This document shows positions 8,810 through 36,727 of a DNA stretch of 64,000 bases, piece after piece. The translations under genes were made by a program, and so were the position numbers. Numbering within the stretch: position 1 is the stretch's first letter; each line of letters opens with the position of its first letter. Below the pieces are notes generated by a model that was not told where the DNA came from, searched no databases, and saw nothing but the letters and a program-made list of their open reading frames with translations. The DNA is from Candidatus Saccharimonadales bacterium (GTDB taxonomy: Bacteria; Patescibacteriota; Saccharimonadia; Saccharimonadales; DATKHC01). The stretch covers positions 152,153-216,152 of the forward strand of contig JBBQBA010000001.1 of assembly GCA_038317055.1 (NCBI GenBank), read 5' to 3'.

Positions 8810-9214
8810 CTATATTCGCTCTAGTAATATTACAGGAATAGCTCTTTTAGTTTTCTGTTGATACTCCAAAAAACCAGGATACCGTGAAGCATGCTGTGCG
8901 TAGAGTTTTTTTCTTGTAGCTTCATCTGTTATTTCTGCTTTTGCCTTAAATTTCTCATCGCCCATTTCAACTTCGACCTGATCATTAGCTACTACATTAA
9001 AAAACCAATCTGGATGAGAGTCCGCTCCACCTTTTGAGGCAATAATTACATATTTATCACCCTCTTCTGTATATACAAGTGGAATTATTCGCTTCTTTCC
9101 ACTTTTCGCACCTATAGTGGTTAGAAGAAGTAGAGTGCTTCCATCAAAGGCACCGCCAACTTTTCCATGATTCTTTCTAAATTCTTCAATTACTGAAGTG
9201 TTCCAGTCGCTCAT
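8810..9214 (-). CDS. deazaflavin-dependent nitroreductase/quinone reductase family protein (PF04075-like)
   Basis: 134 aa. IEEFRKNHGKVGG..LLLLTTIGAKSGKKR..GGADSHPDWFFN..YQQKT.R.IPV pattern typical of this family. Confidence 0.7.
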   Translation of the reverse strand: MSDWNTSVIEEFRKNHGKVGGAFDGSTLLLLTTIGAKSGKKRIIPLVYTEEGDKYVIIASKGGADSHPDWFFNVVANDQVEVEMGDEKFKAKAEITDEATRKKLYAQHASRYPGFLEYQQKTKRAIPVILLERI

Positions 9215-15724: not shown

Positions 15725-15890
15725 TACTTAGATAAACCTGAATTCCCGTAATTTAAGTTAAAGTCACTGCTCTCAACTACGTTCAAAGTCTTATTCATTA
15801 TTTGTATTTCTACCCCTTAGTATTAGTTAAAATAATACGACATAATCAACATAAGCGTCAAGGACTAGAAAGAGTTATATATGGATTTGT

Positions 15891-16091
15891 TTACTTGGAT
15901 TTCTTAGAGGAAGATTTAGTACTAATATTGTTTTTTGGCTCCAAAGCTTTAGCAACACCCTGATAGTAAGTAACCTCAGCATTTAGCTCAGATAGTCTTT
16001 TTTGGAGGTTTTCCGCCTCTTTTATTATTTCTTGTATTTTTGCTACAGCCTCTTCATACGTACCTACTTCTGGTAGTTGTGATAAATCCAT
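15891..16091 (-). CDS. small coiled-coil protein (hypothetical)
   Basis: 66 aa. Heptad-like EAVAKIQEIIKEAENLQKRLSELNAEV. Lies in an operon-like run with the flanking genes. Confidence 0.4.
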   Translation of the reverse strand: MDLSQLPEVGTYEEAVAKIQEIIKEAENLQKRLSELNAEVTYYQGVAKALEPKNNISTKSSSKKSK

Positions 16092-16102
16092 ATCTGTCCT
16101 TT

Positions 16103-16600
16103 CTAATTTACCTGAACCATAATTAACCCGTGCTTGACAGGAAGAGTAATATATTTTAACTCCATAGTACCTAGAACAGAGTAATCAAAACAACCAGGGT
16201 CGTCAATTAAAATTATGGACTTTTTTGACATAAATGGAACAAAATATTCAACTTCGTCAGACCTGGAATTCGTACCGCTATCAATAAAAAGTAAGTTAAT
16301 TTCACTCTTGGGCTTAAAATCAACGCCTTTGCAATGATGTGCTTCTATAGGGAGTCCTTCAAAACCTCGATCACTTTTCCAGCAAATATCACATGGATCA
16401 CAAGTTATTAAATTGCCACTATTTAATTCTTTAGCCATGGCTCTAGCTGACTTTCCAAGGTATGTTCCAGATTCAACAATTAATTTTGGTTGAATAGTAT
16501 GCACTAAATTACAAATAACGCTAATAATTTCATCATCTACCTCAGCAGATATAGAACTATGAAAATTTATAGTTTGATTATCTTCTAAATGCTTAACCAT
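16103..16600 (-). CDS. probable class I SAM-dependent (O-)methyltransferase
   Basis: 165 aa. LIVESGTYLGKSARAMAKEL resembles motif I of family-3 O-MTases (ILEIGT..GYSA). LLFIDSG resembles the post-I acidic motif. Confidence 0.45.
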   Translation of the reverse strand: MVKHLEDNQTINFHSSISAEVDDEIISVICNLVHTIQPKLIVESGTYLGKSARAMAKELNSGNLITCDPCDICWKSDRGFEGLPIEAHHCKGVDFKPKSEINLLFIDSGTNSRSDEVEYFVPFMSKKSIILIDDPGCFDYSVLGTMELKYITLPVKHGLIMVQVN

Positions 16601-18393
16601 CCTGATCCATCAATCTCAGCCTGCCACGTAACGTTCGTAGTTGCTGGCCCATTCACATTAATTGCCGTACCATAGGCTGATGCTGAAACAGAAACAAAAT
16701 ATGGACAAAAGGATAATGTGGGAGTACCCGCAGCAGTTGCAGGATTAGAAATTGTGATAGATGAGCTAGTTGCTTTAGCTATTACCCAGCTTCCAGTTGC
16801 TATTCCAACTCCAGTTACAGCTTGACCAACACTAACTGAGCCAAACGTAGCGGCAGATGTAACTGTCTGTGAGTTCAGAGTAGTAGTACTTGCAGCGGTA
16901 AAAGTAGCTGGGTAAGTTCCCATAGTTAGTGGTGCTAGTGCTCCTGCCCCCATTGGTGAACCTACTAATGCTCTATTTGAAACCATAAACTCACCATTGA
17001 AAGCAACAGAATCATCTGAACTACCAGAAGCTCCACCAGTCCGTCTTGCCCATATTCTAGCTTTTACATGCTTTACAACATTAGCCATCGTAGGGTCTGC
17101 CCATATAGCTATCGCACCTGTAGTGGTTGTTTGTGCCCAATTCATTTGTTTACCGGTTCTAATTGGAGAGTTTATGTAGAAAGTTAGAGTAGAGCTAGCT
17201 GATACCGTTGCAGCAAAATTAATTGTTATAGATGATGTGGAACCCACTGCTGTTACTATCGTTCCAGTCTGTAGTCCTACTCCTGTTACTAACATTCCAA
17301 CAGCTACAGAACCAAAAAGTGCTGCAGAAGTAACGGTAGTTGAACTTGCTAGTGTAGATGCAACCGTAAAACTTGCTAAAGTTGAAAAAATCATAGATGC
17401 AACCGTAGTGGTTAACTGGGTAGGCAAACTTAATAATAGTGACGAAGATGAATTCTTTGCTACTACCGTTGTACCAGGTAAAATACCCGTTCCCATTACA
17501 TACTGACCAACCACTACAGAACCAAAAGCGGCTGATGATGTTACTGTTTGAGATCCAGCAGTAGTTGTAATAGGGTTTATTGAAGCCACTGTAGTTCCTG
17601 GCATCGATGTATATGCTATTACGTCTGGTGTATAGGTTACTCCTATTGCAGCTATCGAAGTGTTTATCACATCAAGTACGGGGCTAGCTGACTGTCCGGT
17701 TTGTGGTCCAACGCCCGGAAGATTAGTGATCGCCAAGCCTCCAATACCAAACGGTCCACGGTGTTGACTTGGCGCATAACTCATTTGCATATTCCAAGGG
17801 TTTATGATATTTAGTCCCATTGCACTATCTTGGTTTCGTAAAAATATACCGTTAGTGATAATGCCAAAACCACCAGCAATTTGAATGTTATCTATACCGA
17901 CAGCTTCGGTAACGTTTGCTAAAACAGAACCTAATGATAGCGTAAGGCCATACACACCAAAGGCACCAGCATAAGTAAACATTTGAGCTGAAAAAGCACT
18001 ATACTTACCGGTGCTTGACATACCACCTTGTGATTCTGAGCCTAACCCTACATTTCCAGAAGCAGTTATAGCATTTTGGCTATAGTCAGTAACGCCATTA
18101 GAGGAAAACAAGGGGTTCATATTAACAAGTAGCGAAGCCGAATTATTAGATAAATTTGATTGAGACGTGACACTTCCTTGAATTATTCTATTGTCATCAA
18201 TTACCATAGCTAGTCCACGTTTAGATTGGTTTGTGGCTGGTCCTTTAATATTAAAATAATATGGGAAAGGCTGTATACCAGTAAAAGTTCCGGACAAACT
18301 GCTATTTATAGGTGTAATACCACCCCATATATTTGTGGTGGCAGGTAACCCATTCTGTAAGCCAATACCTCTTTTAACTCCTTTATTTGCCAC
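16585..18393 (-). CDS. large Gly/Ser/Thr-rich beta-repeat protein of the fibre locus (hypothetical)
   Basis: 602 aa. Three ~50-aa internal repeats (..QTVTS.A.FGSV.VG..V.G.G...G..V.A..SSS...). Start overlaps the upstream gene stop (18393). Confidence 0.55.
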   Translation of the reverse strand: MANKGVKRGIGLQNGLPATTNIWGGITPINSSLSGTFTGIQPFPYYFNIKGPATNQSKRGLAMVIDDNRIIQGSVTSQSNLSNNSASLLVNMNPLFSSNGVTDYSQNAITASGNVGLGSESQGGMSSTGKYSAFSAQMFTYAGAFGVYGLTLSLGSVLANVTEAVGIDNIQIAGGFGIITNGIFLRNQDSAMGLNIINPWNMQMSYAPSQHRGPFGIGGLAITNLPGVGPQTGQSASPVLDVINTSIAAIGVTYTPDVIAYTSMPGTTVASINPITTTAGSQTVTSSAAFGSVVVGQYVMGTGILPGTTVVAKNSSSSLLLSLPTQLTTTVASMIFSTLASFTVASTLASSTTVTSAALFGSVAVGMLVTGVGLQTGTIVTAVGSTSSITINFAATVSASSTLTFYINSPIRTGKQMNWAQTTTTGAIAIWADPTMANVVKHVKARIWARRTGGASGSSDDSVAFNGEFMVSNRALVGSPMGAGALAPLTMGTYPATFTAASTTTLNSQTVTSAATFGSVSVGQAVTGVGIATGSWVIAKATSSSITISNPATAAGTPTLSFCPYFVSVSASAYGTAINVNGPATTNVTWQAEIDGSGWLSI

Positions 18394-18779
18394 TAAAGAT
18401 CACCCCCAGTTGCAACAATATTAACTAGTTGAGATCCCACAAAAGTTGCAGCAACTAACGTCCAGCCTGATTTAAGTTCCAAATTTCCATAACTGTTTAC
18501 TTGCCTAAATGGAGGTACAGCAGTTGTAGGTGTTATGGCGTTGATAACAACTGAGTCATAGAAATGGTATGTAGAACCATCGTACAAGAAGAGACCTATA
18601 ACACCTGCAACAGTCGTTCCAGTTCCAATGAAAACTACTTCCTCTATTTTAGTTCCATTAGACCCTGCTACCACAATAGTTACCGTGTTTGTGGGAGCTG
18701 TGTATGACGCATTCGCACTTGATGATACTACGTTTGAACCTATATTAGGTGTTGCTGCAAATTGTGGTGATGTTGCCAT
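18393..18779 (-). CDS. hypothetical beta-rich protein (128 aa) of the fibre locus
   Basis: ORF tightly packed between the fibre gene and the 602-aa gene. No recognisable domain. Confidence 0.45.
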   Translation of the reverse strand: MATSPQFAATPNIGSNVVSSSANASYTAPTNTVTIVVAGSNGTKIEEVVFIGTGTTVAGVIGLFLYDGSTYHFYDSVVINAITPTTAVPPFRQVNSYGNLELKSGWTLVAATFVGSQLVNIVATGGDL

Positions 18780-18794
18780 TTAATGACTCCTTCG

Positions 18795-20312
18795 TTATTT
18801 AAAATTAGCTTCTAGATATAAAACGTTCGATGATGAATTGGTTAATTGTTCGACAGTAGCAGCATCAGTCGGGCTAATACCATCCGCCATGTTACTTATC
18901 CGATTGTTAATTGTTCCGTTACCCATCATAACATTGGCCACAGCGGGGGCGAATTTATCTAAACTGTTAGCTCTAATGGCACTTTCACCTGCTACTCCTG
19001 TCATTATATTTATCCATACTTGAGAATCTGTATCTATAAGTAATCCAGTTGCAGGTGCAGTCATAATCCATTCTGAACTAGCATAACCACCGCCATTAAT
19101 AATTCCTACGGTTCTACTTCTAACAGTTGTTGCTGCTGCAAATTCAGCAGGCCTAGTTCCGACACTGCCACCAGAAGGTACTAGCCATAATCCATTACGA
19201 GATCCTGTTACTTGGTTAGTTAATAAAACTAGATCGTTTGCGAGTAGTGTGTATGAATCAATAACCGTTGAGCCTGCTGTGAGTGTTGGACCTCCTCCTG
19301 CATATGCAAAATCTGTTGCGGTAGTTGGAGCATATACTACTGCTGCTGGTGTAAGACTTGATATCTGTAGATTTGATCTCGAGTAACCGGCATTTCCTAC
19401 ATCGCTTAAATTATTTGCAGCAAGTAATACTCCGCTTGCTGAAGCCCCGGTTGAACCTGCTGGGCCGGTAGGACCAGTAGTTCCTTGAGAACCAGATGGT
19501 CCTGTTGCTCCAGTAGTGCCTGCTCCGGTAGCTCCTTGTGTACCAGTGTTTCCAGTGATTCCAGTTGGTCCGGTAGGGCCAGTTGTGCCTTGCGAACCAG
19601 ATGGTCCTGTTGCTCCGTCGTTGCCTGCTGGACCTGTAGCACCAGTTGTTCCAGCACCGGCAGGGCCAGTTGCTCCTGAGGCTCCAATTGTTCCTGTAGG
19701 TCCAGTAGCTCCGGTTGTTCCTGCACCAGTAGCACCTTGTGATCCGGTTGCGCCAGTAAATCCTGTTGGACCAGTTGCTCCTCCACCCGGACCTGTTGGG
19801 CCTTGCGAACCAGTCGCACCAGTAGTGCCTGAGCCAGTGGCACCTTGAGTACCTGTGGCACCTGTACCACCATCATTACCAGTTGGGCCAGTTGCACCAG
19901 TTGTTCCCACCCCTGTAGCACCTTGTGTGCCGGAAGTACCTGTTGCACCAGTAGAACCTTGACCACCCGCTCCACCGGTAGGACCTGTTGCTCCAGTTGT
20001 ACCTTGTGATCCCGAAGTACCTGTAGCCCCAGTAGATCCTTGACTTCCCGCTCCACCGGTAGGACCAGTTGCTCCAGTTGTACCAGTACCAGTTGCACCT
20101 GTTGCACCAGTGATTCCCACTGGTCCAGTGGCACCTGTTGCACCGCTACCTGGACCGGTTGCTCCAGTTGTACCTTGAGGCCCCTGGGGACCTGTTGAAC
20201 CTATAGCTGAACCCTTTAAGCTCCCGTCAGTATTTAGAGAGACACTTAAGAAATCATTTAGTATATTACCCCAATTACCATCATCACCACCGGGCGTAGG
20301 CAATCGTGCCAT
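18795..20312 (-). CDS. collagen-like triple-helix repeat protein, phage-tail-fibre-like (paralog 2)
   Basis: Start moved to [27 protein letters not shown] (ATG 20310-20312, GAGGGG 12 nt upstream). About 260 aa of G-X-Y repeats (GATGPTG...), then a C-terminal globular part with ..[28 protein letters not shown]. Confidence 0.8.
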
Positions 20313-20733
20313 AAAATTAATACCCCTCAATACCTAAATATTCGCTTGCGCTTAGTATAACAAACAAACGAACTTTTAAGAAGACTTGTGGTGCTTAAAT
20401 CGTTGTAAATTATTTTAAGAAATAGGAATATTAAATTATGGCGCTATATTCCCAAGTGAAATAGATTTTCGGACGACATCACTCTCCCAACTTGAATCAG
20501 TAAATGCTTCGTTTCCTGAGAAATAAGATTCGCTATTATAGTCCAGATGAAAACCACTTAGTTAGAAAAGTGGAATAATTGGAGTAACAGTATTTTGGGC
20601 TAATTGTATTTCAGAAAGTACAATAATTATTACTCTGTAATATACAGAATATTGGTACGCAAAAAGGGGTATGTATCGGATAATCTTGGCTTGTCAAGTA
20701 GGCCAATTGCCAACGGTTTAGTGGCTAGTGACG

Positions 20734-21366
20734 TTAAAATGCCTCTAATACACCTGTTGTATTTTGTTCAATAAATACACCCAACATACCAAAAGCATGG
20801 CTATTACCCCAACTAGCTGTGTACGCAATAGATGCTTGGGTATCGCTAATAATAAGATAACCACCTTGAGCACGAGTTGCAACTACTGTTGATGTGCTAA
20901 TTGGATTTGTTCCACTTCCTGCAGTCCAACTAGTAGGAGTACCTGAAGAAAGTGCTTGTCCTACCGCCATTAACAGGATGTCACCAGTATTCGTAGATGT
21001 TGGCATAGTCAGAATTCCGCTAGTCCCTGTTTGGGCATTTAGAGCAGTTGGTGTTCCTTCAACAGTATTTGCTGCACCGTTTAACTCCCACATAGTAATA
21101 CCCTGGCTGGTTCCACCACTACCAGCCGTAACAGTTATGGTAGTTTCCGTACCATCTGCCACACGTGTACCAAAAAAAAGTGAATTAGCTCCTGCGGACC
21201 ATGTTGCATTTGTACCATTAAAAACCCATCCAGTAACTGAAGGAGCTGAAGTAGTGGCTGATTGTGATACAAAACAACAAAGTAAATTACGAGCAGTTGG
21301 AGCAATTGCTAAGGTTGAAGCGGCTGCACCAGCTGTTTGCGATAAGTTAACTACTAAAATGGGCAT
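20734..21366 (-). CDS. hypothetical beta-rich protein (210 aa) downstream of fibre paralog 1
   Basis: Its start lies 4 nt after the stop of the 823-aa gene. Thr/Ser/Gly-rich. No recognisable domain. Confidence 0.45.
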   Translation of the reverse strand: MPILVVNLSQTAGAAASTLAIAPTARNLLCCFVSQSATTSAPSVTGWVFNGTNATWSAGANSLFFGTRVADGTETTITVTAGSGGTSQGITMWELNGAANTVEGTPTALNAQTGTSGILTMPTSTNTGDILLMAVGQALSSGTPTSWTAGSGTNPISTSTVVATRAQGGYLIISDTQASIAYTASWGNSHAFGMLGVFIEQNTTGVLEAF

Positions 21367-21369
21367 GAT

Positions 21370-23841
21370 CTATGATACCCCTACACAGCGCCACTTACTT
21401 GTTAATCCGTTCCAAATAAATCCAACCGTTAGAGGTAAAGTAGTTGAGCCATTAGAAATAAAGGGCACTTGAATATTGCTTGTCTCAGTATTAATCCATG
21501 TTAATGTCTGTGTTGCGGCTGAAAAATCTACCACTTTGACGAGAAGTTTCTGACCATCTGTAGGTGAAGGACTTGATGTAGCAATAGTAATTTGCAGTGC
21601 AGCAGCTGAACCATTCTGTACAGTAACTACGTCTGAACTACTGGGTACCGTTGCTGTATTGGGTGGTCCAGTTACTGTGGCAATCACCTTCTTTGCTGCT
21701 GCACCCACCGGACTCCAAACACCCGCAGTACCACCAGAACTATATGACCCCGTCGGAGCACTGGCAACAATTACTTCAAATTGTGTCGCCGATAGGCCTG
21801 CTGAAATCACGACCCAAGTCCCATTCGGGTTATTTGTGGCAAAGCCCGTTATGCCAGAGATGCTTACAGATTGGCCAACTATTAAGCTGTTAGCTGCTGT
21901 GTACGTAACCGTTGTACCTGAATTCGTTGCGCCAGTAATAGGCCCTGTGGTACTAGAAATTGGTGAGCATATCCACATTTGACCAGAACTTGTCACAATG
22001 AAATCATTTGGAGAGAATAATTTCGTAGCTCCAGTAGCTACACCTGACGCAGTGCCACCAGCCAACCTTATTACTGTTGTTGCGCCAGTTATACCAGTTA
22101 GTGCAAGTCCACCATTGGTTTGTAATGTAGCTGTGTATGTAATTGATCTATATAAAATGGCATCCGGGGAGGTACTTCCACCAACCCCAAAGCCAAGAGC
22201 AGGAACCGTAAAGAAAACTCCCATACTTAGATAGGGCTGAGAGTCACCAGAATTAAAATAAAGTGATAAACCCGCTGGATTTAATGTTTGAAATACTTTG
22301 CCGTGAGCTGCAGTACTATCTTGGAATGTTCCGGTTACAGCAATAACAGGTGGATTTGTACCCGTAACAGAAATTGTATTGTTTGTATCCGCACTTGGCA
22401 ATTGAGAATAAATAAGTGGCTGACCACTAGAGGCAGCAGCTGCAACATTAGTCAGAGTTGAGCCACCCATACTATAGTTACCTGTTGCTGAAGTTAATTG
22501 ATTAAGAGAGTTGTTTCTAATAATAGTTTCTTGAGATAAATTACCAACCCATGAGTTCAAGATGAACCAATTTGTACCATCCGAATCAAGCCAAATTGAA
22601 TCATATTGAACAATCAAGCCAATTGATGAGACACCATCAATAGTACCTGAAGCCGGTGTTACGGTTATTGTTCCAGCACCGTTATCAATCTTTTTAATAA
22701 ATACTTGATTACCCAGACTAGCTGCCGGTAATGTTAAAGTCCAACCTCCTACGCCTGCAGTTGCTAGTACAATATCGCCTGATATTGCTGCATAAGTAGT
22801 ATTTTGGGCAACTACTCGGTTAACGCTAATTCTACTACGAGGAAGATTACCTTGAATTGCTATCCAAATACCACCAGATGCATTATAAATATAAGTTATA
22901 GCTTGATTTACTAAACTAAGCGATTGCGTCGTAGTACCACCAGTAATATCAAATACATCTGAACCACCCGAAGCAATTGTAAGTTGATATCCAAAAGTTG
23001 CGGAATTTCCAACAACAATTTTAACCCCTATAATTGTTTTATCCGTCGGTGCAGTTGGCAAAGTAACAGTAAATGATCCGCTAGATATATCGCATGCTAC
23101 AAGATCATTGGGATTTGCTGAGTAATTTGAAGTTTTAACGGAAGTCAGTGACAATTGTGTTATTGGACCAGTAGCGCCGGTCGTGCCTTGAGTACCAGCG
23201 TTCCCGGTTGGGCCAGTTGCACCTGTTGTACCTTGTGAACCAGACGGTCCTGTGGCACCAGTCGTTCCCGCACCAGTGGCACCGGTTGTGCCTTGAGTAC
23301 CAGCGTTCCCGGTTGGGCCAGTTGCACCTGTTGTACCCGCACCAGTGGCACCATCTGGGCCAGTTGCACCAGTAAAACCAGTTGGTCCTGTGGCTCCACC
23401 CCCAGGGCCAGTTGGACCTTGTGAACCAGTGGCACCTGTTGTGCCAACTCCAGTAGCACCCGTATTACCCAACGAACCAGTTGGGCCAGTTGCACCTGTT
23501 GTTCCCGCACCGGTGGCACCAGTAGTGCCGCTGCTGCCGACTGAACCGCTTGCACCCGTTGATCCTTGCGTACCGATTCCACCTGATGGACCTGTCGCTC
23601 CAGTATTGCCATTATTGCCTTGTGATCCAGTAGCCCCTGTTCCACCATCGTTACCTTGGGGTCCTGTTGATCCGGTAGACCCAGCACCAGGTCCTGTAGC
23701 ACCCTGAGGACCCTGAGGTCCAGTTGGGCCTATTGTAGAACCCTTAAGTGTACCATCAGAATTTAGAGACACACTTAAAAAATCATTAAGTATGCTACCC
23801 CAGTTACCATCGTCACCACCGGGTGAAGGTAATCTTGCCAT
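21370..23841 (-). CDS. collagen-like triple-helix repeat protein, phage-tail-fibre-like (paralog 1)
   Basis: 823 aa. N-terminus [27 protein letters not shown] is shared with two paralogs. About 190 aa of G-X-Y repeats, then a ~600-aa beta-rich C-terminal region. Confidence 0.8.
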
Positions 23842-23951
23842 CTATTTCTTCTTACCCTTCGGTTATTATCAATAGCAATATTAGCTTAAGTATATCGAAT
23901 TAGTGCAGATACTAATACACCTATATAATTCCGTAGAATTATAATTATATT

Positions 23952-24191
23952 CTAGACTCCGTATGGGCCGGCACCGAAACCAACTTTTGAGCCAGAATTA
24001 GCTGTTTGGTGTTTGTGAATAACAGTAGTTTTGCCTTTACCCGTCAAGAAATGAACTATTGGACCTAGTCCAACTACTGTAAGTGCACCTAATCCAACAA
24101 TAGATAAGAATTCAGTACGATTAACTTCTCTGGTAAGAAGTTCTTGGATTGGCTTTACGTTTTTCTGCTGATTTATATTTTGTTGATCCAT
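23952..24191 (-). CDS. small membrane protein with Tat-signal-like N-region (hypothetical)
   Basis: 79 aa. ..REVNRTEFLSIVGLGALTVVGLG.. resembles an (S/T)RRxFLK plus h-region but has a single Arg. Immediately downstream of tatC. Confidence 0.4.
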   Translation of the reverse strand: MDQQNINQQKNVKPIQELLTREVNRTEFLSIVGLGALTVVGLGPIVHFLTGKGKTTVIHKHQTANSGSKVGFGAGPYGV

Positions 24192-24244
24192 TTTTGATCT
24201 TTTTATATTAACTTTTTTTGTTTTTATGGTTACTATTTGTTACT

Positions 24245-25177
24245 TTACTGTACTAATGCATAACCGTCAATATCTTTTCTGTCTATTATCCCCCGATTTT
24301 GATTAGCTTCAGTTTCCACAACCATTTGAGGTTGTAGCAATCGAGAATTTTGAGCTATCAATTGACGTTGTTTCCTATTTTCTTCATCTTTTTGTCTGAG
24401 TACAGCTATTGAAGCTTTTTTACCCGGTCGGTGTTCATACCAAACGATAATTATCGCTAATTGATACATGATTATTATCGGCATTGCTATTAATCCCTGA
24501 TAAATAAGACTAGGTACAGGGGCCATTAGCATGGCTACAATAAAACTACCTGCAATTACATGTCTTTCGTATTTCAAAAACCTACCAGGTCCTTTTGGTT
24601 TAACCTTATCTATAAACCAAACAATTAACGGGAGCTGAAAAAGTAGTGCAGAACCACCTAGGTATATCGTTAGAAATGACATGTATTCTTGTATAGTGAA
24701 AAGTGCATGTATTTGGCTAGTATTAAATTGGTTACCCAAAAAATGCAGAGCTGTTGGTAAACCAACATAATATCCAAATATGAAACCAGCGGTCGCAAGA
24801 AGAAACGAAACAATGCTTGCCTTAAGTACCAATTTTGTATGTTTTGTCGAGATTACCGGTTCGATAAATTTCATGATGTGATAAAGAATTACAGGAAGCG
24901 CGATTACTATACCTACATAGGTACATATTTGAAATAGAAAGGCAATACCACCTCCCGGTGAGGTGTATATAAACTGCTGACCATGAGCTGGTCTTAATAG
25001 AAAATGCACAATTCGCTGTTGGACAAAATATGCCAATGTAGAAAAGAGTAGAATCGCCCCAACTACATAGAAGAGACGAGATCTTATCTCAATTAAGTGC
25101 TCTACAAACGGTGCTTTTATATTAGCTATTTGCGTCTGTTGTGGTTGCTTCTTGTTTTTCTTTTGGTGCGCCCTCAT
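24245..25177 (-). CDS. tatC: twin-arginine translocase subunit TatC
   Basis: 310 aa, 6 TM. HLIEIRSRL start motif. The annotated start overlaps the tatA 3' end by 56 nt, so the true start is uncertain. Confidence 0.85.
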   Translation of the reverse strand: MRAHQKKNKKQPQQTQIANIKAPFVEHLIEIRSRLFYVVGAILLFSTLAYFVQQRIVHFLLRPAHGQQFIYTSPGGGIAFLFQICTYVGIVIALPVILYHIMKFIEPVISTKHTKLVLKASIVSFLLATAGFIFGYYVGLPTALHFLGNQFNTSQIHALFTIQEYMSFLTIYLGGSALLFQLPLIVWFIDKVKPKGPGRFLKYERHVIAGSFIVAMLMAPVPSLIYQGLIAMPIIIMYQLAIIIVWYEHRPGKKASIAVLRQKDEENRKQRQLIAQNSRLLQPQMVVETEANQNRGIIDRKDIDGYALVQ

Positions 25178-25340
25178 GATAGCCGTCGTTTATCCCTTTA
25201 CGTAACTCTCGCATGGACTCACCTAAGCTTTTAGATAGCTGAGGTAATTTTTTTCCACCAAAGAGTAACAATACTATTGCTAAAATGATGATTAGTTCTG
25301 GCGCTCCTAGATCTAAAAACGCGAAATTTGTTGGTAACAT
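25122..25340 (-). CDS. tatA: twin-arginine translocase subunit TatA/E (copy 1)
   Basis: 72 aa. LGAPELIIILAIVLLLFGGKKLPQLSKSLGESMRELRKG is the canonical TatA TM plus amphipathic helix. Confidence 0.88.
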   Translation of the reverse strand: MLPTNFAFLDLGAPELIIILAIVLLLFGGKKLPQLSKSLGESMRELRKGINDGYHEGAPKEKQEATTTDANS

Positions 25341-25421
25341 TTTTATTTCTTCCTCTTGTTATATATCACCATGTATCGTAGCATTAAGCTATAGCTTTTG
25401 TAAACAAAATAGTAAAAAAAT

Positions 25422-26126
25422 ATGTATAACGAATTTTTTAAATTACCCGTAGGAATATTAAGTAGTGTTTATGGATGCGGTGCTTATGGTAATGGTACAT
25501 ACAATAACTCCTGTTCACCATCTCCCTCACCTACTCCGACTCCAACTCCTACGTCAACACCTGCCACTCCTCCAGTTGTTTCAATAGTTTCAATAGATAA
25601 TACTCCATATACATTGGGATCCATTGAGGACGTAAATAGTTTACCGACTATATCTGGTTTAGCTCCTGCAAACTCGACAATAGTTATCACTATTACTCCG
25701 GGGGATACAACCTGTACTACAAAGGCAGACGCACAAGGTAATTGGAGTTGTAAAATCACCCAACCACTTACGAATGGATTACATACCGTAGGAGTAGTCG
25801 CGACAACACCGTCGGGTCAAGTAATTACACTTGCTTCATTCCAGATTAATGTTAGCGCTAACGTAACAACAAATACGAGCACTACTCAGTCGACGCCAAA
25901 ACCTGTACATCATACAAACTATTTGGAAATCTCATTTATTATACTAATACTAGGTCTACTTATTGGTTTTCTTATATTCTTCTTATCAAAAAGACGTAAG
26001 AAAAAAGATGATGATAGCCAGCATCCTTCTGGACCCACAATTATCCCTGACGCTCCGACTGGAATTCCCCCAGCTCCGCCTTCTTCATATCCACCAACCC
26101 CACCAACGATTACTCCTTCCAGCTAA
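25422..26126 (+). CDS. surface protein: (S/T)P-rich linker, Ig-like domain, TM anchor, Pro-rich tail
   Basis: 234 aa. SPSPSPTPTPTPTSTP linker, TISGLAPANSTIVITITPGDTTCTTKADAQGNWSC (bacterial Ig-like pattern), TM ISFIILILGLLIGFLIFFL, KRRKKK stop-transfer. Confidence 0.55.
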   Translation: MYNEFFKLPVGILSSVYGCGAYGNGTYNNSCSPSPSPTPTPTPTSTPATPPVVSIVSIDNTPYTLGSIEDVNSLPTISGLAPANSTIVITITPGDTTCTTKADAQGNWSCKITQPLTNGLHTVGVVATTPSGQVITLASFQINVSANVTTNTSTTQSTPKPVHHTNYLEISFIILILGLLIGFLIFFLSKRRKKKDDDSQHPSGPTIIPDAPTGIPPAPPSSYPPTPPTITPSS

Positions 26127-26168
26127 TAATATTTAACGCACTAGTTTATATCTGCTACAGTAGACTTG

Positions 26169-27335
26169 ATGAAGTTTAGGTTCCATGTAGTAAATCTTCC
26201 ACATACTCAAACAACCAAAGACTACACGGCTTGTGCATACACAATGAAGGTGCTGAAGTTTTGTAAAATGATGAAGTCTTTAGGTCATGAGGTCTTTTTA
26301 TATGCATCTGAAGAAAACGAAGCTCCCTGTGATGAGCTCATAACGATAGTCTCAAAAAAAGAACAATCAAAATGGTTCGGCGATTATGACCACAAAACTA
26401 ATATGTTCAATATTGAGTGGAATGAAACCCTTCCCCACTGGACTATTCCAAATATGCGGGCAATAAAGGAAATAAAGAAACGCGCTCAACAAAGAGATTT
26501 TATTTGTATTATTGGTGGTGTTTGCCAGAAACAAATATCCGATGGACTACCAGAGCTAATGTCGGTTGAATATGGTATTGGCTACGAAGGTGTTTACTCT
26601 AACTTTAGGGTTTATGAAAGCTATGCTCATATGCATTATGTTCAGGGAATTATGCACGACGATAATGGACGATTCTTTGATACAGTTATACCAAATTACT
26701 TCGATCCTGATGAATTTACTTTCAGAGAAAAAAAGGATGATTTCTATCTATTTATTGGTAGACTGATTCCTCGGAAAGGACCAGAAATGGCAGTTGAGGT
26801 AACTCGCAAAATTGGGGCTAAACTAATACTTGCCGGTCAAGGTGTAAAGAAAATTGAGGGTAACAAAATTTACGGCGAAGAAGGCATGATAATTGAGGGT
26901 AATCACATTAAACATATGGGTCATGCTGATGTTGCCCAAAGGTCTGAACTTATGGGCCGGGCAAAAGCTGTATTTGTATGTACGTATTATCTTGAACCCT
27001 TTGGTGGCGTATCTATCGAGCCAATGTTTTGTGGTACTCCAGTAATAACTACTGATTGGGGCGCTTTCCCCGAAAATGTAGTCCATGGTTCAGTTGGCTA
27101 CCGTGCTAGAACTATGGGTGAAGCAGTTTGGGCAGCTCAAAATCTAGATAAACTAAAAAGCCCAACAAAGATCCGTGAATATGCAATGAAAAATTTTAGT
27201 ATGGAGCGCGTTAAATATCTTTATCAAGCTTATTTTGAACAACTAAATGAAATTTGGGATAATGATGGCTGGTACTCAGACTGGAATAAAGGTGTATCTA
27301 AATACAACCGTTACACTAGATACCCTGCAAAATAA
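26169..27335 (+). CDS. GT-B fold glycosyltransferase (family 1/4-like)
   Basis: 388 aa from the ATG at 26169 (the track starts at the TTG at 26166). EX7E-type motif EPFGGVSIEPMFCGTPVI. FIGRLIPRKG. Confidence 0.8.
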   Translation: MKFRFHVVNLPHTQTTKDYTACAYTMKVLKFCKMMKSLGHEVFLYASEENEAPCDELITIVSKKEQSKWFGDYDHKTNMFNIEWNETLPHWTIPNMRAIKEIKKRAQQRDFICIIGGVCQKQISDGLPELMSVEYGIGYEGVYSNFRVYESYAHMHYVQGIMHDDNGRFFDTVIPNYFDPDEFTFREKKDDFYLFIGRLIPRKGPEMAVEVTRKIGAKLILAGQGVKKIEGNKIYGEEGMIIEGNHIKHMGHADVAQRSELMGRAKAVFVCTYYLEPFGGVSIEPMFCGTPVITTDWGAFPENVVHGSVGYRARTMGEAVWAAQNLDKLKSPTKIREYAMKNFSMERVKYLYQAYFEQLNEIWDNDGWYSDWNKGVSKYNRYTRYPAK

Positions 27336-27379
27336 AAAAAGAGCTGCTGCTCTATTTAGATAAAACTGAAACTAAATAA

Positions 27380-28042
27380 TTAAGCTTTGTGTTTAATTAT
27401 GTACTGATAAAGTATTGCTGAAGCAGCACCATATAGTACAAGCCAGTAGATCGTAAGAAGAATTCCTATTATTGTAATTGAAGGAATAATCATCAGCAAT
27501 GATACGCCGAAGATTCCATAAACTTTTCCAACATGACCTCTAGTTGCATTCCAACTAGCTTTGTAGGCATCAACTGCACTCAGCTTCTTATCTATTAGGA
27601 AATAAGGAGAAAGGACTATTCTTGGAACAATAATTAGTCCTGGAATTATAAGTAGTAGAAACGAAAGACAAGATAGTGCTAATAGTATATAAAGCAGAAT
27701 TGCTTGAAGATAAAGTGTTTTAGCTTTATCTATAACTTCACTAAGAGTTAGAGCATTGCCTTTAACTCCTGAAAGATAAAGTTGGTATATACAAAGACCA
27801 ATAAACACACTTATAAGTGCTGAAATAAGTTGACCAATCGTTGGGATGTATCTTAATACGACGCTGGCAACTATATTAATTAGCCATAGCTCGACAATCG
27901 GAACTATATTTAACATTACTGCTTCACGAGAAGGTTTGTATGCAGCAAAAGCACCTTGCCAGGATTTTGGATGTGAAGATCCTTTTGGCAAAACAACAGT
28001 AGCGCTGTGGTCTGTCTTTTTCAGATCTTTATCCATAATCAT
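27380..28042 (-). CDS. multi-pass membrane protein (DUF975-like, hypothetical)
   Basis: 220 aa, 4-5 hydrophobic helices. Convergent with the glycosyltransferase. Confidence 0.5.
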   Translation of the reverse strand: MIMDKDLKKTDHSATVVLPKGSSHPKSWQGAFAAYKPSREAVMLNIVPIVELWLINIVASVVLRYIPTIGQLISALISVFIGLCIYQLYLSGVKGNALTLSEVIDKAKTLYLQAILLYILLALSCLSFLLLIIPGLIIVPRIVLSPYFLIDKKLSAVDAYKASWNATRGHVGKVYGIFGVSLLMIIPSITIIGILLTIYWLVLYGAASAILYQYIIKHKA

Positions 28043-28224
28043 TCAACTATATTCTTAAAGGATTTGTTTTGCAACTAAACTGCAGCAATTATGCAATTAA
28101 CGGTGAAGAATCGACTAATATTTGCCGTTCTTGCAAATTACTTATGTAAATAGTGTTTATTGTATTTACAATGCTAAGGCTTAGTGCTACGCTAAAATTA
28201 ACAATTAATGAGGGAAAAGCGAAC

Positions 28225-28440
28225 ATGTTACCAACAAATTTTGCGTTCTTAGATCTTGGAACACCAGAACTTATAATTATATTGGCGATTGTTCTACTAC
28301 TTTTCGGCGGAAAAAAACTACCTCAGCTATCAAAAAGTCTTGGCGAATCAATGCGTGAAATACGTAAAGGTGTTAATGGCGATTCTCACGACAATGCAAA
28401 ATCTACAAAAGAAAAAGAACCACAAGAACCAACCAGTTAG
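28225..28440 (+). CDS. tatA: twin-arginine translocase subunit TatA/E (copy 2)
   Basis: Start moved to the ATG at 28225 (GAGGGA 10 nt upstream). The first ~50 aa are almost identical to copy 1 at protein level, but with many synonymous nucleotide differences. Confidence 0.88.
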   Translation: MLPTNFAFLDLGTPELIIILAIVLLLFGGKKLPQLSKSLGESMREIRKGVNGDSHDNAKSTKEKEPQEPTS

Positions 28441-28743
28441 TATATAGTACTACGCTACTTACGCATTGAACGTTAATCACAACCATCGTTGAGACGTATT
28501 GTAACTAAACCAATTATTTTCTAATTAGTTTAATACATTCGTCAGTTTGAGAGATATTCTGACTATTGATTAGTTGAGAATCTAATTTAATCTAAGTGTT
28601 AATTTAAATATTAATTGATAATTAGATGAATATTGTTAATTGAAAGCACTGATTTTATTCTTTAAAGCGATTGCAAGGGTTTAAAACGGTAAAGTTAATG
28701 TTTGTTTGATGCTATTTTTTATATAATCCTATATTTTGGTTGC

Positions 28744-28772
28744 TTGATAGTACGTCTCGAACTGGTTATGAT
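28744..28772 (+). promoter_or_regulatory. candidate sigma70-type promoter for fibre paralog 3
   Basis: TTGATA-17 nt-TATGAT, about 50 nt upstream of the ATG at 28824. Confidence 0.3.
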
Positions 28773-28823
28773 ATGAACATTAGTAATAGAAGTAAACATA
28801 TAAAATGTTTGGATAACTAGCTT

Positions 28824-30095
28824 ATGGCTCGTCTACCAATACCTGGAAGTGATACGGGCAATTGGGGAAGTATCCTCAATGACTTCTTAAGTGTCTCTTT
28901 AAATACAGATGGTTCTCTAAAAGGTTCCGCTATAGGTTCCACTGGTCCTCAAGGACCACAAGGTACCCAAGGAGCAACTGGTCCTGGAGCTGGAGCAACT
29001 GGTGCTACCGGTCCTACTGGACTACAAGGTACAACTGGCCCCACCGGAGCGATAGGCTCATCCGGTGCTACTGGCTCAGGAACAACTGGAGCTACTGGTT
29101 CTACCGGACTTCAAGGAACAACTGGTTCTACCGGACCCTCAGGTAGCGTAGGAACTCAAGGAACAACTGGTGCTACAGGACCTTCAGGTAGCGTAGGTGG
29201 TCAAGGAACAACTGGACCAACCGGTCCAACAGGAAATCAAGGAGCGACTGGTCCCGCTACTGGAGTAGCTAGTGGAGATTTAACTGGAAATTATCCGAAT
29301 CCTACTTTAGTAGGTACAGCGAATGTAGAGAGTATTATTAGAGCTAATACCTTGGATCAGTTTGGTTCAGCTACGGGTCTCATTAGTCTAGGAAATGGTA
29401 CGTCTAATAATAGGATAGTAAACTTGGCGGCTGGAACTAATTCTACTGACGCACCTAATATGAGCCAACTCGGAGGTTGGGTACCGGATGCGAATGTATG
29501 GACACGAATATCGAATACTCAGTTCACAACTCCAACAAACCAGACCAACATATATGTCAATGGTACGCAATTAAAGTGGATCGATAGTGGCGGAACTAAG
29601 TACGGTACCGTTGCGTCATCATCGTTTGCAACTTCGACTACAACCGTAATCCTAGCTTCTACTGTAGACTATTTGCTTGCATCTTCTCCGGGAGCTGGAG
29701 CTAATTGGTATTCATATACGATCCCTCCAGACTTTCCGTCAACATTTACTTGGGCTCCGACATTCTCGGGTATTACAGGTGGTGATCCTGCTGGTAGTTA
29801 CTTTTTTGGTATGATTAGCTTAAAGTTTATGTTTGTGAGTGCTACAGGTATTTCAGGAACTGCAACGGGTACCACGCTAGGAGCAACACTGCCTATGGCA
29901 GCTGGTAGAACAGTATATCAACTTGCAGAAGGCGTTGATAATGGCGCAAATGCACTTGTGGCAACAAATACCTCTGCGTCTATCTTGACAGTAGCTAGCT
30001 CTACGGCTTTAACTTTCGCTAAGGAACCTGGTGGTGCCGCATGGACAAACTCTGGCTGGCGAAAAGTCTCATTTGAAATTGTGGTGCCATTATAA
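28824..30095 (+). CDS. collagen-like triple-helix repeat protein, phage-tail-fibre-like (paralog 3)
   Basis: 423 aa. [28 protein letters not shown]-terminus, ~108 aa of G-X-Y, then ..[29 protein letters not shown].. and a beta-rich C-terminus. Confidence 0.8.
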
Positions 30096-31123
30096 TGGCG
30101 CTCACTCATTGTCTACCAACTGGGTCTCTTGGTACATTTGAAATCCCAGTAATTCAAGTACCCGGAGGTGGAACTGTATTGGAACCGGTTGGATCGAAGC
30201 GTGGAGTGGTAGTACTACTCCATGGACTACAGCTTATAAATAACTCATCCTTCCCTGTTACCTTAATCGATAATTCGGTAGACCAGTTATTAACTTTTGC
30301 TAATGATCTAGTCGCTGATGGTTGGGTAGTACTTTTTCCGGGTATGATGGGAGATAATAATGTACTAAGCCAAGATAACGCAATATTTAACGACATAAGT
30401 AATGACACAGGTCACGGATCAAGACTACTATCTAATACTATGCACTGGTGGGACCACGTTGTGGATTGGGTGAGTATGAACTATGGTAGTTTGCCAATAG
30501 TTCCTTTTGGAATCTCATGGGGGGGTTGGCATGCTCTGCAAATAGGTATAAATAGAACTTCTTCGATCTTAGCATATGGAGCTAATACTCCAGTCACTCA
30601 ATTGTGGACGCTTCCTTTTTTCAACCTATATGATAAGCCACCAAAGGTCTCCTATACTCTTGATTCCAGTATGAATAATCAAAACCTCCCGCAATCGACA
30701 ATCACAGTAAATGAGTCTATATCAGGAGCAGCTAGCTCTGGTTCTTTAGTAGTTGTTACTTCTTCTGGCAACCAATTTGTATATTACACCGGTAAAAGTG
30801 GAAAGTCTTTTACGGGCTGCACTGGCGGTTTTGGTACAGACACAATGTCAAGTAATGGCTCTGTTACTCAATCTACCTTTACTAGTGGGCTTGATATTTC
30901 GCCAACTGCATTAAACGGCGTAACTACTATTCCAGGATATGTAACTTGGGAAACGGGTGATCTTGTGGTTGGTTACGCCAACACACAAGTTCTTTATAAT
31001 ACAGCTACGGCTGCTGGTATTCAACTTACTAACAACGTAATTACTGGCGGAGGTCATAATCTTTTAGCAACAGAGGTATCAGCGGCTATGAATTGGTTCA
31101 CCAGTATCGTGGATAATCTATGA
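30095..31123 (+). CDS. alpha/beta-hydrolase-fold protein (GxSxG), paralog of 13949..15724
   Basis: 342 aa. Its ATG overlaps the fibre gene stop (TAATGG). HWWDHVV and GISWGGWHAL nucleophile elbow. C-terminal FVYYTGKSGKSFTGCTGG motif. Confidence 0.65.
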   Translation: MALTHCLPTGSLGTFEIPVIQVPGGGTVLEPVGSKRGVVVLLHGLQLINNSSFPVTLIDNSVDQLLTFANDLVADGWVVLFPGMMGDNNVLSQDNAIFNDISNDTGHGSRLLSNTMHWWDHVVDWVSMNYGSLPIVPFGISWGGWHALQIGINRTSSILAYGANTPVTQLWTLPFFNLYDKPPKVSYTLDSSMNNQNLPQSTITVNESISGAASSGSLVVVTSSGNQFVYYTGKSGKSFTGCTGGFGTDTMSSNGSVTQSTFTSGLDISPTALNGVTTIPGYVTWETGDLVVGYANTQVLYNTATAAGIQLTNNVITGGGHNLLATEVSAAMNWFTSIVDNL

Positions 31124-32120: not shown

Positions 32121-33065
32121 TTATTTTGTGTTTCGAGCAAACAGACTACGTGTCTTGTATAAGTGACGACCAATACCAGCTACAAGTACTGTACCTGCGA
32201 ATAACGCAACAACGCTTCCAGGACCAGTGTTAACTAGTGTGGTAGGAGTTGGTGTAGGAGTAGGTGTAGGAGTTGGTGTAGGAGTTGGTGTTGGAGTAGG
32301 TGTAGGAGTTGGTATTGGAGGTATAACTTGAGTTTGTACCTGATATATAACTACTATTCGGTAGTTGTAACAACCCCATTGGTCACCACTTTGACCAGCA
32401 CCTGGGAAAGTAGGATTACCTATGTTAGTTGTGTTGTTAACTGTATTGTCAGCTAAGTTTCCCCATGAAGGAGTAGCAACTGTTAAGTTGTAGTGAACAG
32501 AACCAGGAACTAATGTTAGTTTAACCTGTTGACCATTACATACTAGTGTCGCACCGTCAGATACAGTTGGCGCATTTGCAGCACTTACTGTACTTGCAAA
32601 TGAGAAGTTACTACCAGTTGTGTTCAAACCTGGAGCAGCTAGAGCTAACTTTACATCGTGAGCAACTGCTGAACCGGCACCGTTATCATTTAAGTTAGGC
32701 ATTGCATCGTTGTGGATGTAAGTCCAAACATCGAATTTGCTATCAGCACTACAAGCAGAAGTAACTGAATCAGCAAGTGCTGGGTTAGCTATATTAAGGC
32801 TTGTGTCTGTTCCACTTATATTAGATCGAATTCGTACAAAGTTAGATTCGTTACCTAAAGGAACTGGACCTGTTGTTGAATTTAAGGGTGTAGGGTCGCC
32901 ACAAATGTTATTGAATACAGGTGTGCTACTGGTAAAAAAGTTACCGCTTGTGTCGTATTGGAAACATGCAGGATTTGCATGAGCAACATTCATTGACATT
33001 GCCATAGTTGCTACAAATGTTAGTCCAACTAAGCTTCCTATTACTTTATTAATTATCTTCATCAT
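32121..33065 (-). CDS. secreted surface protein with (TP)n stalk and LPXTG-like (LVNTG) sorting signal
   Basis: 314 aa. Signal peptide ..ATMAMSMNVAHA, (PT)x~13, then LVNTGPG plus hydrophobic helix plus basic tail (HLYKTRSLFARNTK), the tripartite sortase-signal layout. Confidence 0.65.
   Translation of the reverse strand: MMKIINKVIGSLVGLTFVATMAMSMNVAHANPACFQYDTSGNFFTSSTPVFNNICGDPTPLNSTTGPVPLGNESNFVRIRSNISGTDTSLNIANPALADSVTSACSADSKFDVWTYIHNDAMPNLNDNGAGSAVAHDVKLALAAPGLNTTGSNFSFASTVSAANAPTVSDGATLVCNGQQVKLTLVPGSVHYNLTVATPSWGNLADNTVNNTTNIGNPTFPGAGQSGDQWGCYNYRIVVIYQVQTQVIPPIPTPTPTPTPTPTPTPTPTPTPTPTTLVNTGPGSVVALFAGTVLVAGIGRHLYKTRSLFARNTK
32241..32318 (-). repeat. hexanucleotide tandem repeat encoding (Thr-Pro)n
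   Basis: GGTGTAGGAGTT-type 6-nt units repeated ~13 times inside the CDS. Confidence 0.85.
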
Positions 33066-35619: not shown

Positions 35620-35659
35620 TTTTTGAAACCTTATAATTTAAGACTAAATATGTTTAAAC

Positions 35660-36700: not shown

Positions 36701-36727
36701 AATATTCTCCTTAAATTAAATCCGTTA

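Follow-up and report, generated by a model that had tools for sequence, protein, structure and literature searches.

Collagen-stalked, phage-type tail fibres in two apparent tail-module fragments flanking the tat genes of a probable Saccharibacterium

Introduction

Why would the chromosome of a Saccharibacterium, a member of a lineage known for small genomes, carry three related genes for collagen-stalked, tail-fibre-like proteins with no phage around them? The question is raised by a stretch of 64,000 nt (hereafter, the window) that covers positions 152,153-216,152 of contig JBBQBA010000001.1 (assembly GCA_038317055.1, Candidatus Saccharimonadales bacterium), a contig of ~491 kb. Within it, the three genes lie in two clusters, at window positions 13949-23841 and 28824-31123, with tat genes between them. 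Our reading, which we consider probable but by no means secure, is that the three proteins are phage-type tail fibres lying in two orphan tail-module fragments of a probable Saccharibacterium chromosome, on either side of tat, and that they have been kept for the use of the cell.

The matter bears on how epibionts choose and bind their hosts, for which the available leads are type IV pili and a few adhesins (PMC10633639, PMC12206443). The adhesins of the first of these studies are VCBS, dockerin and Fn3 proteins, unlike the fibres treated here, and our literature search returned no description of this fibre family in Saccharibacteria or Patescibacteria.

Results

Three diverged paralogs with a common build

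The three open reading frames (ORFs) named in the original prediction were all found in place: fibre 1 (21370..23841, minus strand, 823 aa), fibre 2 (18795..20312, minus strand, 505 aa), and fibre 3 (28824..30095, plus strand, 423 aa). Each opens with an N-terminal module (aa 1-37; nt 23731-23841 in fibre 1 and nt 28824-28934 in fibre 3), continues with a collagen tract of G-X-Y repeats, and ends in a distal region that differs among the paralogs, in agreement with the divergent C-terminal parts predicted. The tracts, which had been estimated at ~190, ~260, and ~108 aa, measured 190, 254, and 108 aa, with interruptions (aa 38-227, nt 23161-23730, in fibre 1; aa 38-291 in fibre 2; aa 38-145, nt 28935-29258, in fibre 3). 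In all three fibres they are rich in Thr (24-27%) and poor in Pro (7-9%), and match the Pfam Collagen model above threshold, with E-values from 1e-12 to 3e-21.

The common N-terminus of ~45 aa, for which the original prediction had given a consensus of 39 residues, was also recovered. Indeed, the alignment of the three fibres showed near-identity over residues 1-47, within which the shared, adaptor-like module takes up the first 37. The nucleotide identity of ~80% reported for this region holds for the most similar pair (80% over codons 1-47), whereas the other two pairs reach 75% and 71%. Over the same codons, pairs of paralogs differ by 17-26 synonymous and 4-7 amino-acid-changing substitutions, which indicates that the N-terminus has been held by purifying selection. 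On comparison, no conservation was found in the DNA upstream of the three genes. Because the changes are mostly synonymous and the upstream DNA is not conserved, the genes are diverged paralogs, neither a recent duplication nor an assembly artefact, as had been argued from the start.

Beyond the collagen tract, fibre 1 carries two beta domains of ~100 aa, a neck with the motif IRNNSL near aa 432-505, and a long C-terminal region. In fibre 2, a C-terminal domain follows the tract, and the neck (IRANSLDKF...NNRISNMA, aa 443-490) sits at the extreme end of the protein. In fibre 3, a stretch of 11 residues and an IRANTLDQF neck (~nt 29259-29477) are followed by a beta-rich head (aa 219-423). Thus, the neck motif, originally assigned to two of the fibres, is present in all three, the 823-aa protein included, in the form IR(A/N)N(S/T)L...N.I.N(L/M/V)A. 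It gives rise to sub-threshold YadA_stalk matches (22.7 and 26.8 bits; cut-off, 28.4) and to a weak match to a SadA fragment (E 3e-4).

As for the distal parts, phrog_24595 ("virion structural protein") matches aa 345-474 of fibre 2, a protein 45% identical to one at a Saccharibacteria-type genome locus (L048). Judged by reading the sequences, a post-collagen domain of fibre 1 resembles parts of two proteins found in our searches (P0007 and P0032) and the C-termini of two more (P0034 and P0039). Sequence searches of the PDB matched the fibres to collagens only and returned nothing useful for the C-terminal part of the 823-aa protein. The PHROG matches of the three fibres, with tail-fibre families among them, come largely from the collagen tract, and we did not count them as evidence of phage origin.

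Collinearity with the tail modules of phage-like contigs

Fibre 3 was searched without its collagen tract. After the fibre itself, on an NCBI contig of 491,555 bp, the best match was P0002, which shares 58% identity across the whole post-collagen part. This protein is encoded on a contig of 58 kb and 44% GC (L001), where the gene that follows it is 44% identical to the 342-aa hydrolase that follows fibre 3 in the window; further along, the same contig carries Phage_connect_2, TerL_nuclease, and Phage_portal genes. On a second contig (L128, 43.8 kb, 66.5% GC), which encodes Phage_capsid_3, Amidase_2, and GT4 proteins, a 282-aa fibre that likewise begins with the MARLP module stands directly before a hydrolase 47% identical to the 342-aa protein. 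The capsid protein of this contig is 42% identical to the capsids of Streptomyces phages (Beephvirinae).

A third contig (L130, 45 kb, 64% GC), also with a Phage_capsid_3 gene, bears on cluster 1. Along the minus strand, this cluster reads 823-aa fibre, 210-aa protein, 505-aa fibre, 128-aa protein, 602-aa protein, 165-aa methyltransferase, 66-aa ORF, and 591-aa hydrolase, while cluster 2 consists of the 423-aa fibre followed by the 342-aa hydrolase. The contig has the order fibre, 132 aa, 608 aa, 57 aa, fibre, hydrolase (418 aa). Gene order is therefore kept, with identities of 63% for the 128-aa protein, 49% for the 602-aa protein, 43% for the 66-aa ORF, and ~27% for the hydrolase. The original prediction had described the locus as fibres alone; this needs correction, since the 128-aa, 602-aa, and 66-aa genes and both hydrolases are also genes of tail modules, standing in the order of the phage contigs. 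Its view of the proteins as tail-fibre-like is borne out, because phage-like contigs with capsid, portal, or TerL genes encode close homologues of them in their tail modules.

Since fibres and companions are collinear with phage-like contigs, both clusters appear to be headless fragments of tail modules with preserved gene order, and a phage origin of the clusters is well supported by these comparisons. That L001, L128, and L130 are pieces of cellular DNA is unlikely, given the capsid, portal, and terminase genes on them. More in general, two marks of receptor-binding proteins of tailed phages are found here: homologues in the tail modules of genomes bearing capsid, portal, or terminase genes, and a modular build of anchor, shaft, and variable tip. 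A tblastn search with the 423-aa and 602-aa proteins against 50,697 deposited phage genomes gave no match, and scans of viral contigs found one relative of the esterase family and none of the 602-aa family.

Companion genes of the fibres

The ten ORFs of the two clusters, spanning ~12 kb, are all intact. Their GC content is 41-44.5%, collagen-free genes included, against 37% for the window.

A second pair of paralogs, absent from the original prediction, closes the clusters: the 591-aa protein at 13949-15724 (minus strand), an alpha/beta-hydrolase paralog with a long C-terminal extension, is the last gene of cluster 1, and the 342-aa esterase/lipase-like protein at 30095-31123 (plus strand) is the last of cluster 2. 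The two share 46% identity over ~180 aa. The 342-aa protein has a putative triad of Ser141, Asp289, and His321, invariant in 46 aligned hydrolase sequences, and an inserted beta domain of ~80 residues that recurs in large phage tail and baseplate proteins. Its structural model (pLDDT 94) has an alpha/beta-hydrolase fold, with monoacylglycerol lipases and esterases as Foldseek matches (E 2e-8). On the strength of the GxSxG motif, the Ser-Asp-His residues, and the modelled fold, both proteins are predicted to be alpha/beta-hydrolase serine esterases. The family has 64 members, several of them on contigs of 40-58 kb. Searching the PDB by sequence with the 342-aa and 128-aa proteins returned nothing useful.

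Between fibres 1 and 2 lies the gene of the 210-aa, beta-rich protein (20734..21366, minus strand), with no homologue in any locus fetched. The 128-aa protein (18393..18779, minus strand) corresponds to the 132-aa gene in the same position on L130. Next comes the 602-aa protein (16585..18393, minus strand), with three repeats of ~50 aa (family D10); the identity to its 608-aa counterpart (P0119), its sole real homologue in the search, extends over the full length. The repeats (aa 339-436) weakly match the capsid decoration protein of an actinophage (PDB 8eci, E 8e-4). The 823-aa fibre and the two esterases also contain G-rich beta repeats of this sort.

The 165-aa protein (16103..16600, minus strand) is a Methyltransf_24 methyltransferase by Pfam. 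Because L130 has no counterpart at this position, the gene looks like an insertion into the module. The 66-aa ORF (15891..16091, minus strand) corresponds to the 57-aa gene after the 608-aa gene of L130.

A family-1 glycosyltransferase is encoded between the clusters (26166..27335, plus strand), and its homologues are found beside module-bearing fibre genes in other Saccharibacteria loci and on one viral contig. GT4 or GT1 genes in or beside fibre genes were seen at 13462-14793 of L128, 16741-18069 of L130, and 14112-15215 of L012, in addition to 26166-27335 of the window. The presence of such genes near fibres, on phage-like contigs as well as in Saccharibacteria genomes, hints at glycosylated fibres or virions.

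The N-terminal module defines a very large family

The module reads MARLP(x)PG(G/S)D.GNWG, with one Arg and no hydrophobic stretch, and no Pfam or NCBIfam model matches it. A 39-column profile searched against 1.84 billion proteins retrieved 6,652 cluster representatives at E <= 1e-3, 5,107 of them at E <= 1e-10. Among 150 matches listed, the module is almost always at residues 1-38. In the matches of the collagen-free search with fibre 3, it is fused to pectate-lyase-like beta-helices, DUF5907 repeats, BppL_N, K1-lyase_C, glycine-rich domains, or collagen, the first four of which are typical of receptor-binding proteins. It was also found in 42 IMG/VR contigs, with GC contents ranging from 34% to 71%, where the surrounding PHROGs include large terminase, major head, tape-measure, sheath, major tail, and head-tail adaptor proteins. 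The module is thus a true opening segment of fibres and spikes in phages.

A survey of cellular genomes, one for each species, confirmed the pattern M[AV]RLPxPG[SG]D at no fewer than 401 places, with multiple copies in several genomes. Of the best 80 places, about 60 carry a Saccharibacteria or Saccharimonadia label in their record titles, the rest being mostly Patescibacteria or unlabelled metagenome-assembled genomes (MAGs); as the pattern was built from an alignment biased towards Saccharibacteria, this enrichment is overstated.

We then considered what surrounds these genomic fibres, covering ~6.5 kb on each side in 10 long-contig loci of Saccharibacteria type and up to 10 kb when ORFs were clustered. 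In the 10 loci, the 25 most frequent Pfam families are cellular (histidine kinases, glycosyltransferases, ABC transporters, NUDIX, and photolyase among them), plus pectate-lyase and GDSL domains. The 25 most frequent PHROGs include no head, packaging, or tape-measure family, only tail-fibre, minor-tail, and uncharacterised types. When the 2,386 ORFs of all viral and genomic loci were clustered, just 11 clusters were mixed, the fibre family being by far the largest, and a few genomic loci share one more tail-module protein with viral loci.

In one Saccharibacteria genome represented by 24 assemblies (L126, 1-12700), two module genes bracket about ten co-directional genes without Pfam match, just upstream of tatA-tatC. 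Two of the bracketed genes resemble a protein of a viral contig, and the stretch may be another tail-module fragment.

What looks new is a very large module family of orphan phage-type fibres in cellular contexts, mostly Saccharibacteria-labelled among the genome matches seen, with a recurrent tat linkage; the locus described here is its three-fibre, two-esterase, collagen-stalked example.

A cellular setting without hallmark phage morphogenesis genes

The original prediction had noted that capsid, portal, terminase, tape-measure, sheath, and integrase genes are lacking, and Pfam and PHROG scans of the window ORFs of at least 120 aa confirmed it. No sheath, tube, or baseplate family was detected by Pfam or PHROG among the cluster proteins, and neither att-like direct repeats around either cluster nor a partial copy of the adjacent tRNA-Glu were found. 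The window thus does not show the integrase, terminase, portal, and capsid genes and the att repeats of an intact prophage, nor, by Pfam or PHROG match of any cluster protein, the sheath, tube, and baseplate genes of a tailocin or contractile injection system.

The flanking ClC and tat genes were likewise as described. Between the clusters lie tatC, tatA, an Ig-domain membrane protein, the family-1 glycosyltransferase, a membrane protein, and a second tatA. All the other window genes with a family match are cellular, among them MarR, KsgA, PcrA/UvrD, TIM, PGK, a Znu ABC transporter, the ClC channel, MoxR, DUF58, VWA proteins, FolD, MMPL, Fur, and MurB.

Some of these neighbours deserve mention on their own account. 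Next to tRNA-Glu, two genes on the minus strand (32121-33065 and 33101-34417) encode putative surface proteins with long Thr-Pro and Gly-Ser repeats. The first contains a 12-nt tandem array at 32230-32337 and ends in an LVNTG-like motif with a hydrophobic tail. Length variation of the repeats is conceivable. Downstream of them is an operon of a MoxR-type AAA ATPase, DUF58, and VWA proteins (34570-37795). Elsewhere in the window are genes for an F420H2-dependent quinone reductase family protein (8810-9214), an MMPL transporter (52443-54488), and a DUF348-G5 protein (2244-3461). We take these three to be typical of Actinobacteria, the hosts of cultivated Saccharibacteria, and gene sharing with a host is possible.

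Recurrent linkage to tat genes

In the window, each fibre cluster is preceded by its own tatA paralog, in the same direction. Upstream of fibre 1 is tatC (24245..25177, minus strand), at a distance of 403 nt and co-directional, and upstream of tatC lies the first tatA (25122..25340, minus strand). The second tatA (28225..28440, plus strand; its listed ORF opens at GTG 28153) is 383 nt upstream of fibre 3, in the same direction. The first ~45 residues of the two TatA proteins are nearly identical, with ~80% nucleotide identity over the first ~160 coding nt in an alignment read by eye. This makes the pair about as diverged as the fibre N-termini, and a brief stretch of upstream DNA is also alike.

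The association is not confined to the window. The commonest non-fibre neighbour is tatC, present within the fetched flank at 19 genome loci in addition to the window. In at least nine loci, it is separated from the module gene by 62-979 bp, on either side and mostly in the same direction. Adjacency in about one tenth of the loci compares with well under 1% expected within 1 kb for a single-copy gene, a comparison uncorrected for shared ancestry. Two genomes have unlike fibres at a corresponding site, flanked by lepA (with or without tatAC) on one side and hrcA-grpE-dnaK on the other. We regard the tat-fibre association as real but unexplained.

Two further loci are worth recording. The most extreme fibre array at tat is that of a Saccharibacteria MAG (L084, 3551-12828) with five module genes in tandem, divergent from tatA-tatC. 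The other is in the actinobacterial assembly of Acidithrix ferrooxidans PY-F3 (L121, NZ_JXYS01000026.1, 91567-111683), where a stretch of 46% GC carries a MARLP fibre, tatA, and tatC. This tatC is 53% identical to that of the window, above any Saccharibacteria-labelled locus; the stretch could be a contig of a co-cultured epibiont or the product of horizontal transfer.

On reading, none of the three fibres contains the features of a Tat substrate, that is, a twin-arginine motif followed by a hydrophobic stretch, and their frames leave no room for a longer N-terminus, that of fibre 2 being extendable by just six codons, to a TTG at 20330. The fibres are therefore not classical Tat substrates. 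A scan for promoters and terminators at tat and at the fibres gave results at chance level, which do not bear on co-transcription of the two. As to how fibres without signals would leave the cell, the closeness of tatA and tatC is the sole clue.

Discussion

Orphan tail-module fragments, probably kept by the cell

With regard to origin, the original prediction had offered a remnant or satellite receptor-binding module, and among its three possibilities it is the remnant module that fits best. The domestication that it had also proposed may have taken place and is backed by the wide spread of the fibres in Saccharibacteria chromosomes and by the tat link. For retention speak the intact ORFs, the purifying selection on the N-terminus, the multiple copies per genome, and the location of some of them at syntenic cellular sites (lepA/tatAC to hrcA).

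In the mechanism that we propose, the 37-residue module, which in phages opens the fibre and spike genes of tail modules, would be the adaptor that docks the fibre. It would be followed by a Thr-rich stalk folded as a collagen triple helix, of a length specific to each paralog, by a short YadA-stalk-like neck, and by a distal beta-rich part, different in each paralog and presumed to bind the receptor. The products would assemble as trimers, with a collagen stalk and a head that binds a receptor on a surface. The glycosyltransferase and the methyltransferase may decorate the Thr-rich stalks, by analogy with those of BclA and with L128 and L130, whose tail modules include glycosyltransferase genes. 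The genes would have been retained for the use of the cell, and the likeliest use would be that fibres and enzyme bind and modify the envelope glycans of a bacterial host. A cellular role of this kind, such as binding the host surface, is something that we only infer.

Several points weigh against this reading. No signal peptide, twin-arginine motif, sortase (LPXTG) motif, or membrane anchor was found on reading the three fibres; together with the lack of any meaningful upstream extension, this is more in keeping with virion proteins that are put together inside the cell, in its cytoplasm, than with proteins of the surface. Given their raised GC, these copies look acquired rather than ancient. 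The head of fibre 3 was modelled, as a monomer, with a pLDDT of 57, and its best PDB matches, to adenovirus and reovirus fibre heads, are weak (E 2e-3 to 3e-2). The other ~430 kb of the contig could encode a prophage or tail-like particle to which the fibres belong.

Debris, resident elements and other explanations

The rival that survives best, though we judge it clearly improbable beside retention of the fibres for the cell's use, is that the clusters are no more than inert debris: one or two integrated phages would have lost their head and replication genes by deletion, and what is left, functionless, would not yet have decayed. The gene order of phage tail modules, a GC content above that of the flanks, and proteins without export signals are all what such debris would leave, as are the methyltransferase seemingly inserted into the module and, in another genome (L129), an esterase relative beside split terminase fragments. 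However, functionless genes sit poorly with ten ORFs intact over ~12 kb and with the 17-26 synonymous against 4-7 non-synonymous codon differences at the shared N-terminus; because synonymous differences predominate, the paralogs have diverged under selection since duplication. Nor would debris account for the same orphan fibre type in hundreds of Saccharibacteria-type genomes, in cellular and partly syntenic positions, or for the lack of integration scars.

Of about the same low probability is a proposal that goes further than simple retention, namely, that domesticated phage cassettes of fibre, esterase, and glycosyltransferase form the apparatus by which Saccharibacteria recognise and attach to their hosts, with the adaptor kept, the heads varied, and production or export tied to Tat (one tatA per cluster here). 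The source of the cassettes may be phages that encounter the epibiont as well as the actinobacterium on which it lives. For the Saccharibacterium TM7x, binding by a prophage from its actinobacterial host is on record (PMC13578794), and Actinobacteria have CRISPR spacers against some of the predicted phages of Saccharibacteria (PMC10746230). Phages shared by the two partners would provide a route for genes between high-GC phages and Saccharibacteria, and their contact with both gives a reason why a receptor-binding protein might serve the epibiont.

We consider it rather less probable still that the fibres are alternative receptor-binding proteins of a resident prophage, tailocin, or satellite encoded elsewhere, to which they would dock through the shared adaptor. 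Near-identical adaptors with differing distal domains are indeed the architecture of exchangeable receptor-binding proteins, and the window covers 64 kb of a contig of ~491 kb. On the other hand, scans of the window detected no family of baseplate, tube, sheath, or tape-measure proteins, the flanks of fibres in other genomes are likewise free of such genes over the distances covered, and phage fibres that are scattered and tat-adjacent in many lineages would be unusual.

A third alternative, that the cell makes adaptor fibres as decoys that enter the progeny virions of an infecting phage and render them non-infectious, is very improbable. It would explain an adaptor kept without a cognate virion and could draw on the phages shared by Saccharibacteria and actinobacterial hosts (PMC10746230, PMC13578794), but the idea leaves the esterase, the glycosyltransferase, and the tat link unaccounted for. 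We know of no precedent for anti-phage fibre decoys.

Finally, ordinary collagen-like surface adhesins (Scl, Lcl, BclA) or trimeric autotransporters with no tie to phages, suggested by the collagen repeats and by weak matches to SclA/SclB/Lcl models and YadA_stalk, can be set aside almost entirely: the NCBIfam scores of 43-75 bits fall far below cut-offs of 325-500 and come from the collagen tract only, YadA_stalk stays below threshold, signal peptide, LPXTG motif, and beta-barrel anchor are missing, and the non-collagen parts and the neighbours have homologues in phage contigs.

Significance

Returning to phage-type fibres retained in orphan tail-module fragments, the locus leads to a family of receptor-binding proteins of phage type that is very large, with more than 5,000 sequence clusters sharing one module, and is placed among housekeeping genes. 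Most of its interest hinges on whether the cell actually uses the fibres. If it does, they would be natural candidates for setting host range, and phage receptor-binding hardware would have been reused without the rest of the particle. If they are debris only, they would still record gene flow between high-GC phages and Saccharibacteria, fitting the reports of phages that contact both partners. In either case, the tat linkage is an unexplained regularity on its own account.

Comparison with known systems

Collagen-like tail fibres are known from the prophages of Escherichia coli O157:H7 (PMC3368898). Like these, and like the PHROG types "collagen like minor tail" and "tail fiber", the fibres described here place a G-X-Y stalk between a phage-type N-terminus and a variable tip and are encoded in the chromosome. 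Unlike them, they have a different N-terminal module and are not set within a recognisable prophage, as the 64 kb of the window contain no head, packaging, or integration genes.

The same build invites comparison with other modular receptor-binding proteins. The depolymerases of Klebsiella phages and the fibres of tailocins and extracellular contractile injection systems (eCIS) also carry a short conserved N-terminus on very diverse tips, pectate-lyase-like ones included. There, a particle encoded close by supplies the known partner of the anchor, whereas here no partner is identifiable.

Among bacterial collagens, the closest are BclA of the Bacillus exosporium and Scl1 and Scl2 of Streptococcus, with which the fibres have no match beyond the collagen tract and from which they differ in that no LPXTG anchor, C1q-like domain, or exosporium-targeting motif was detected. 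What they share is the Thr-rich stalk, and BclA likewise has no signal peptide and is glycosylated by enzymes encoded nearby.

The last comparison is with the actinophages. It is imperfect in that no tblastn match was found among the 50,697 deposited phage genomes and in that the copies in the window have ~41-44% GC and lie in the chromosome of a cell. Nevertheless, the genomic relatives of the fibres match PHROG "minor tail protein" families. Furthermore, the pair of fibre and esterase, and that of the 128-aa and 602-aa proteins, occur on phage-like contigs of 64-67% GC, one of which (L128) encodes a capsid akin to those of Streptomyces phages related to the Beephvirinae, which are podoviruses.

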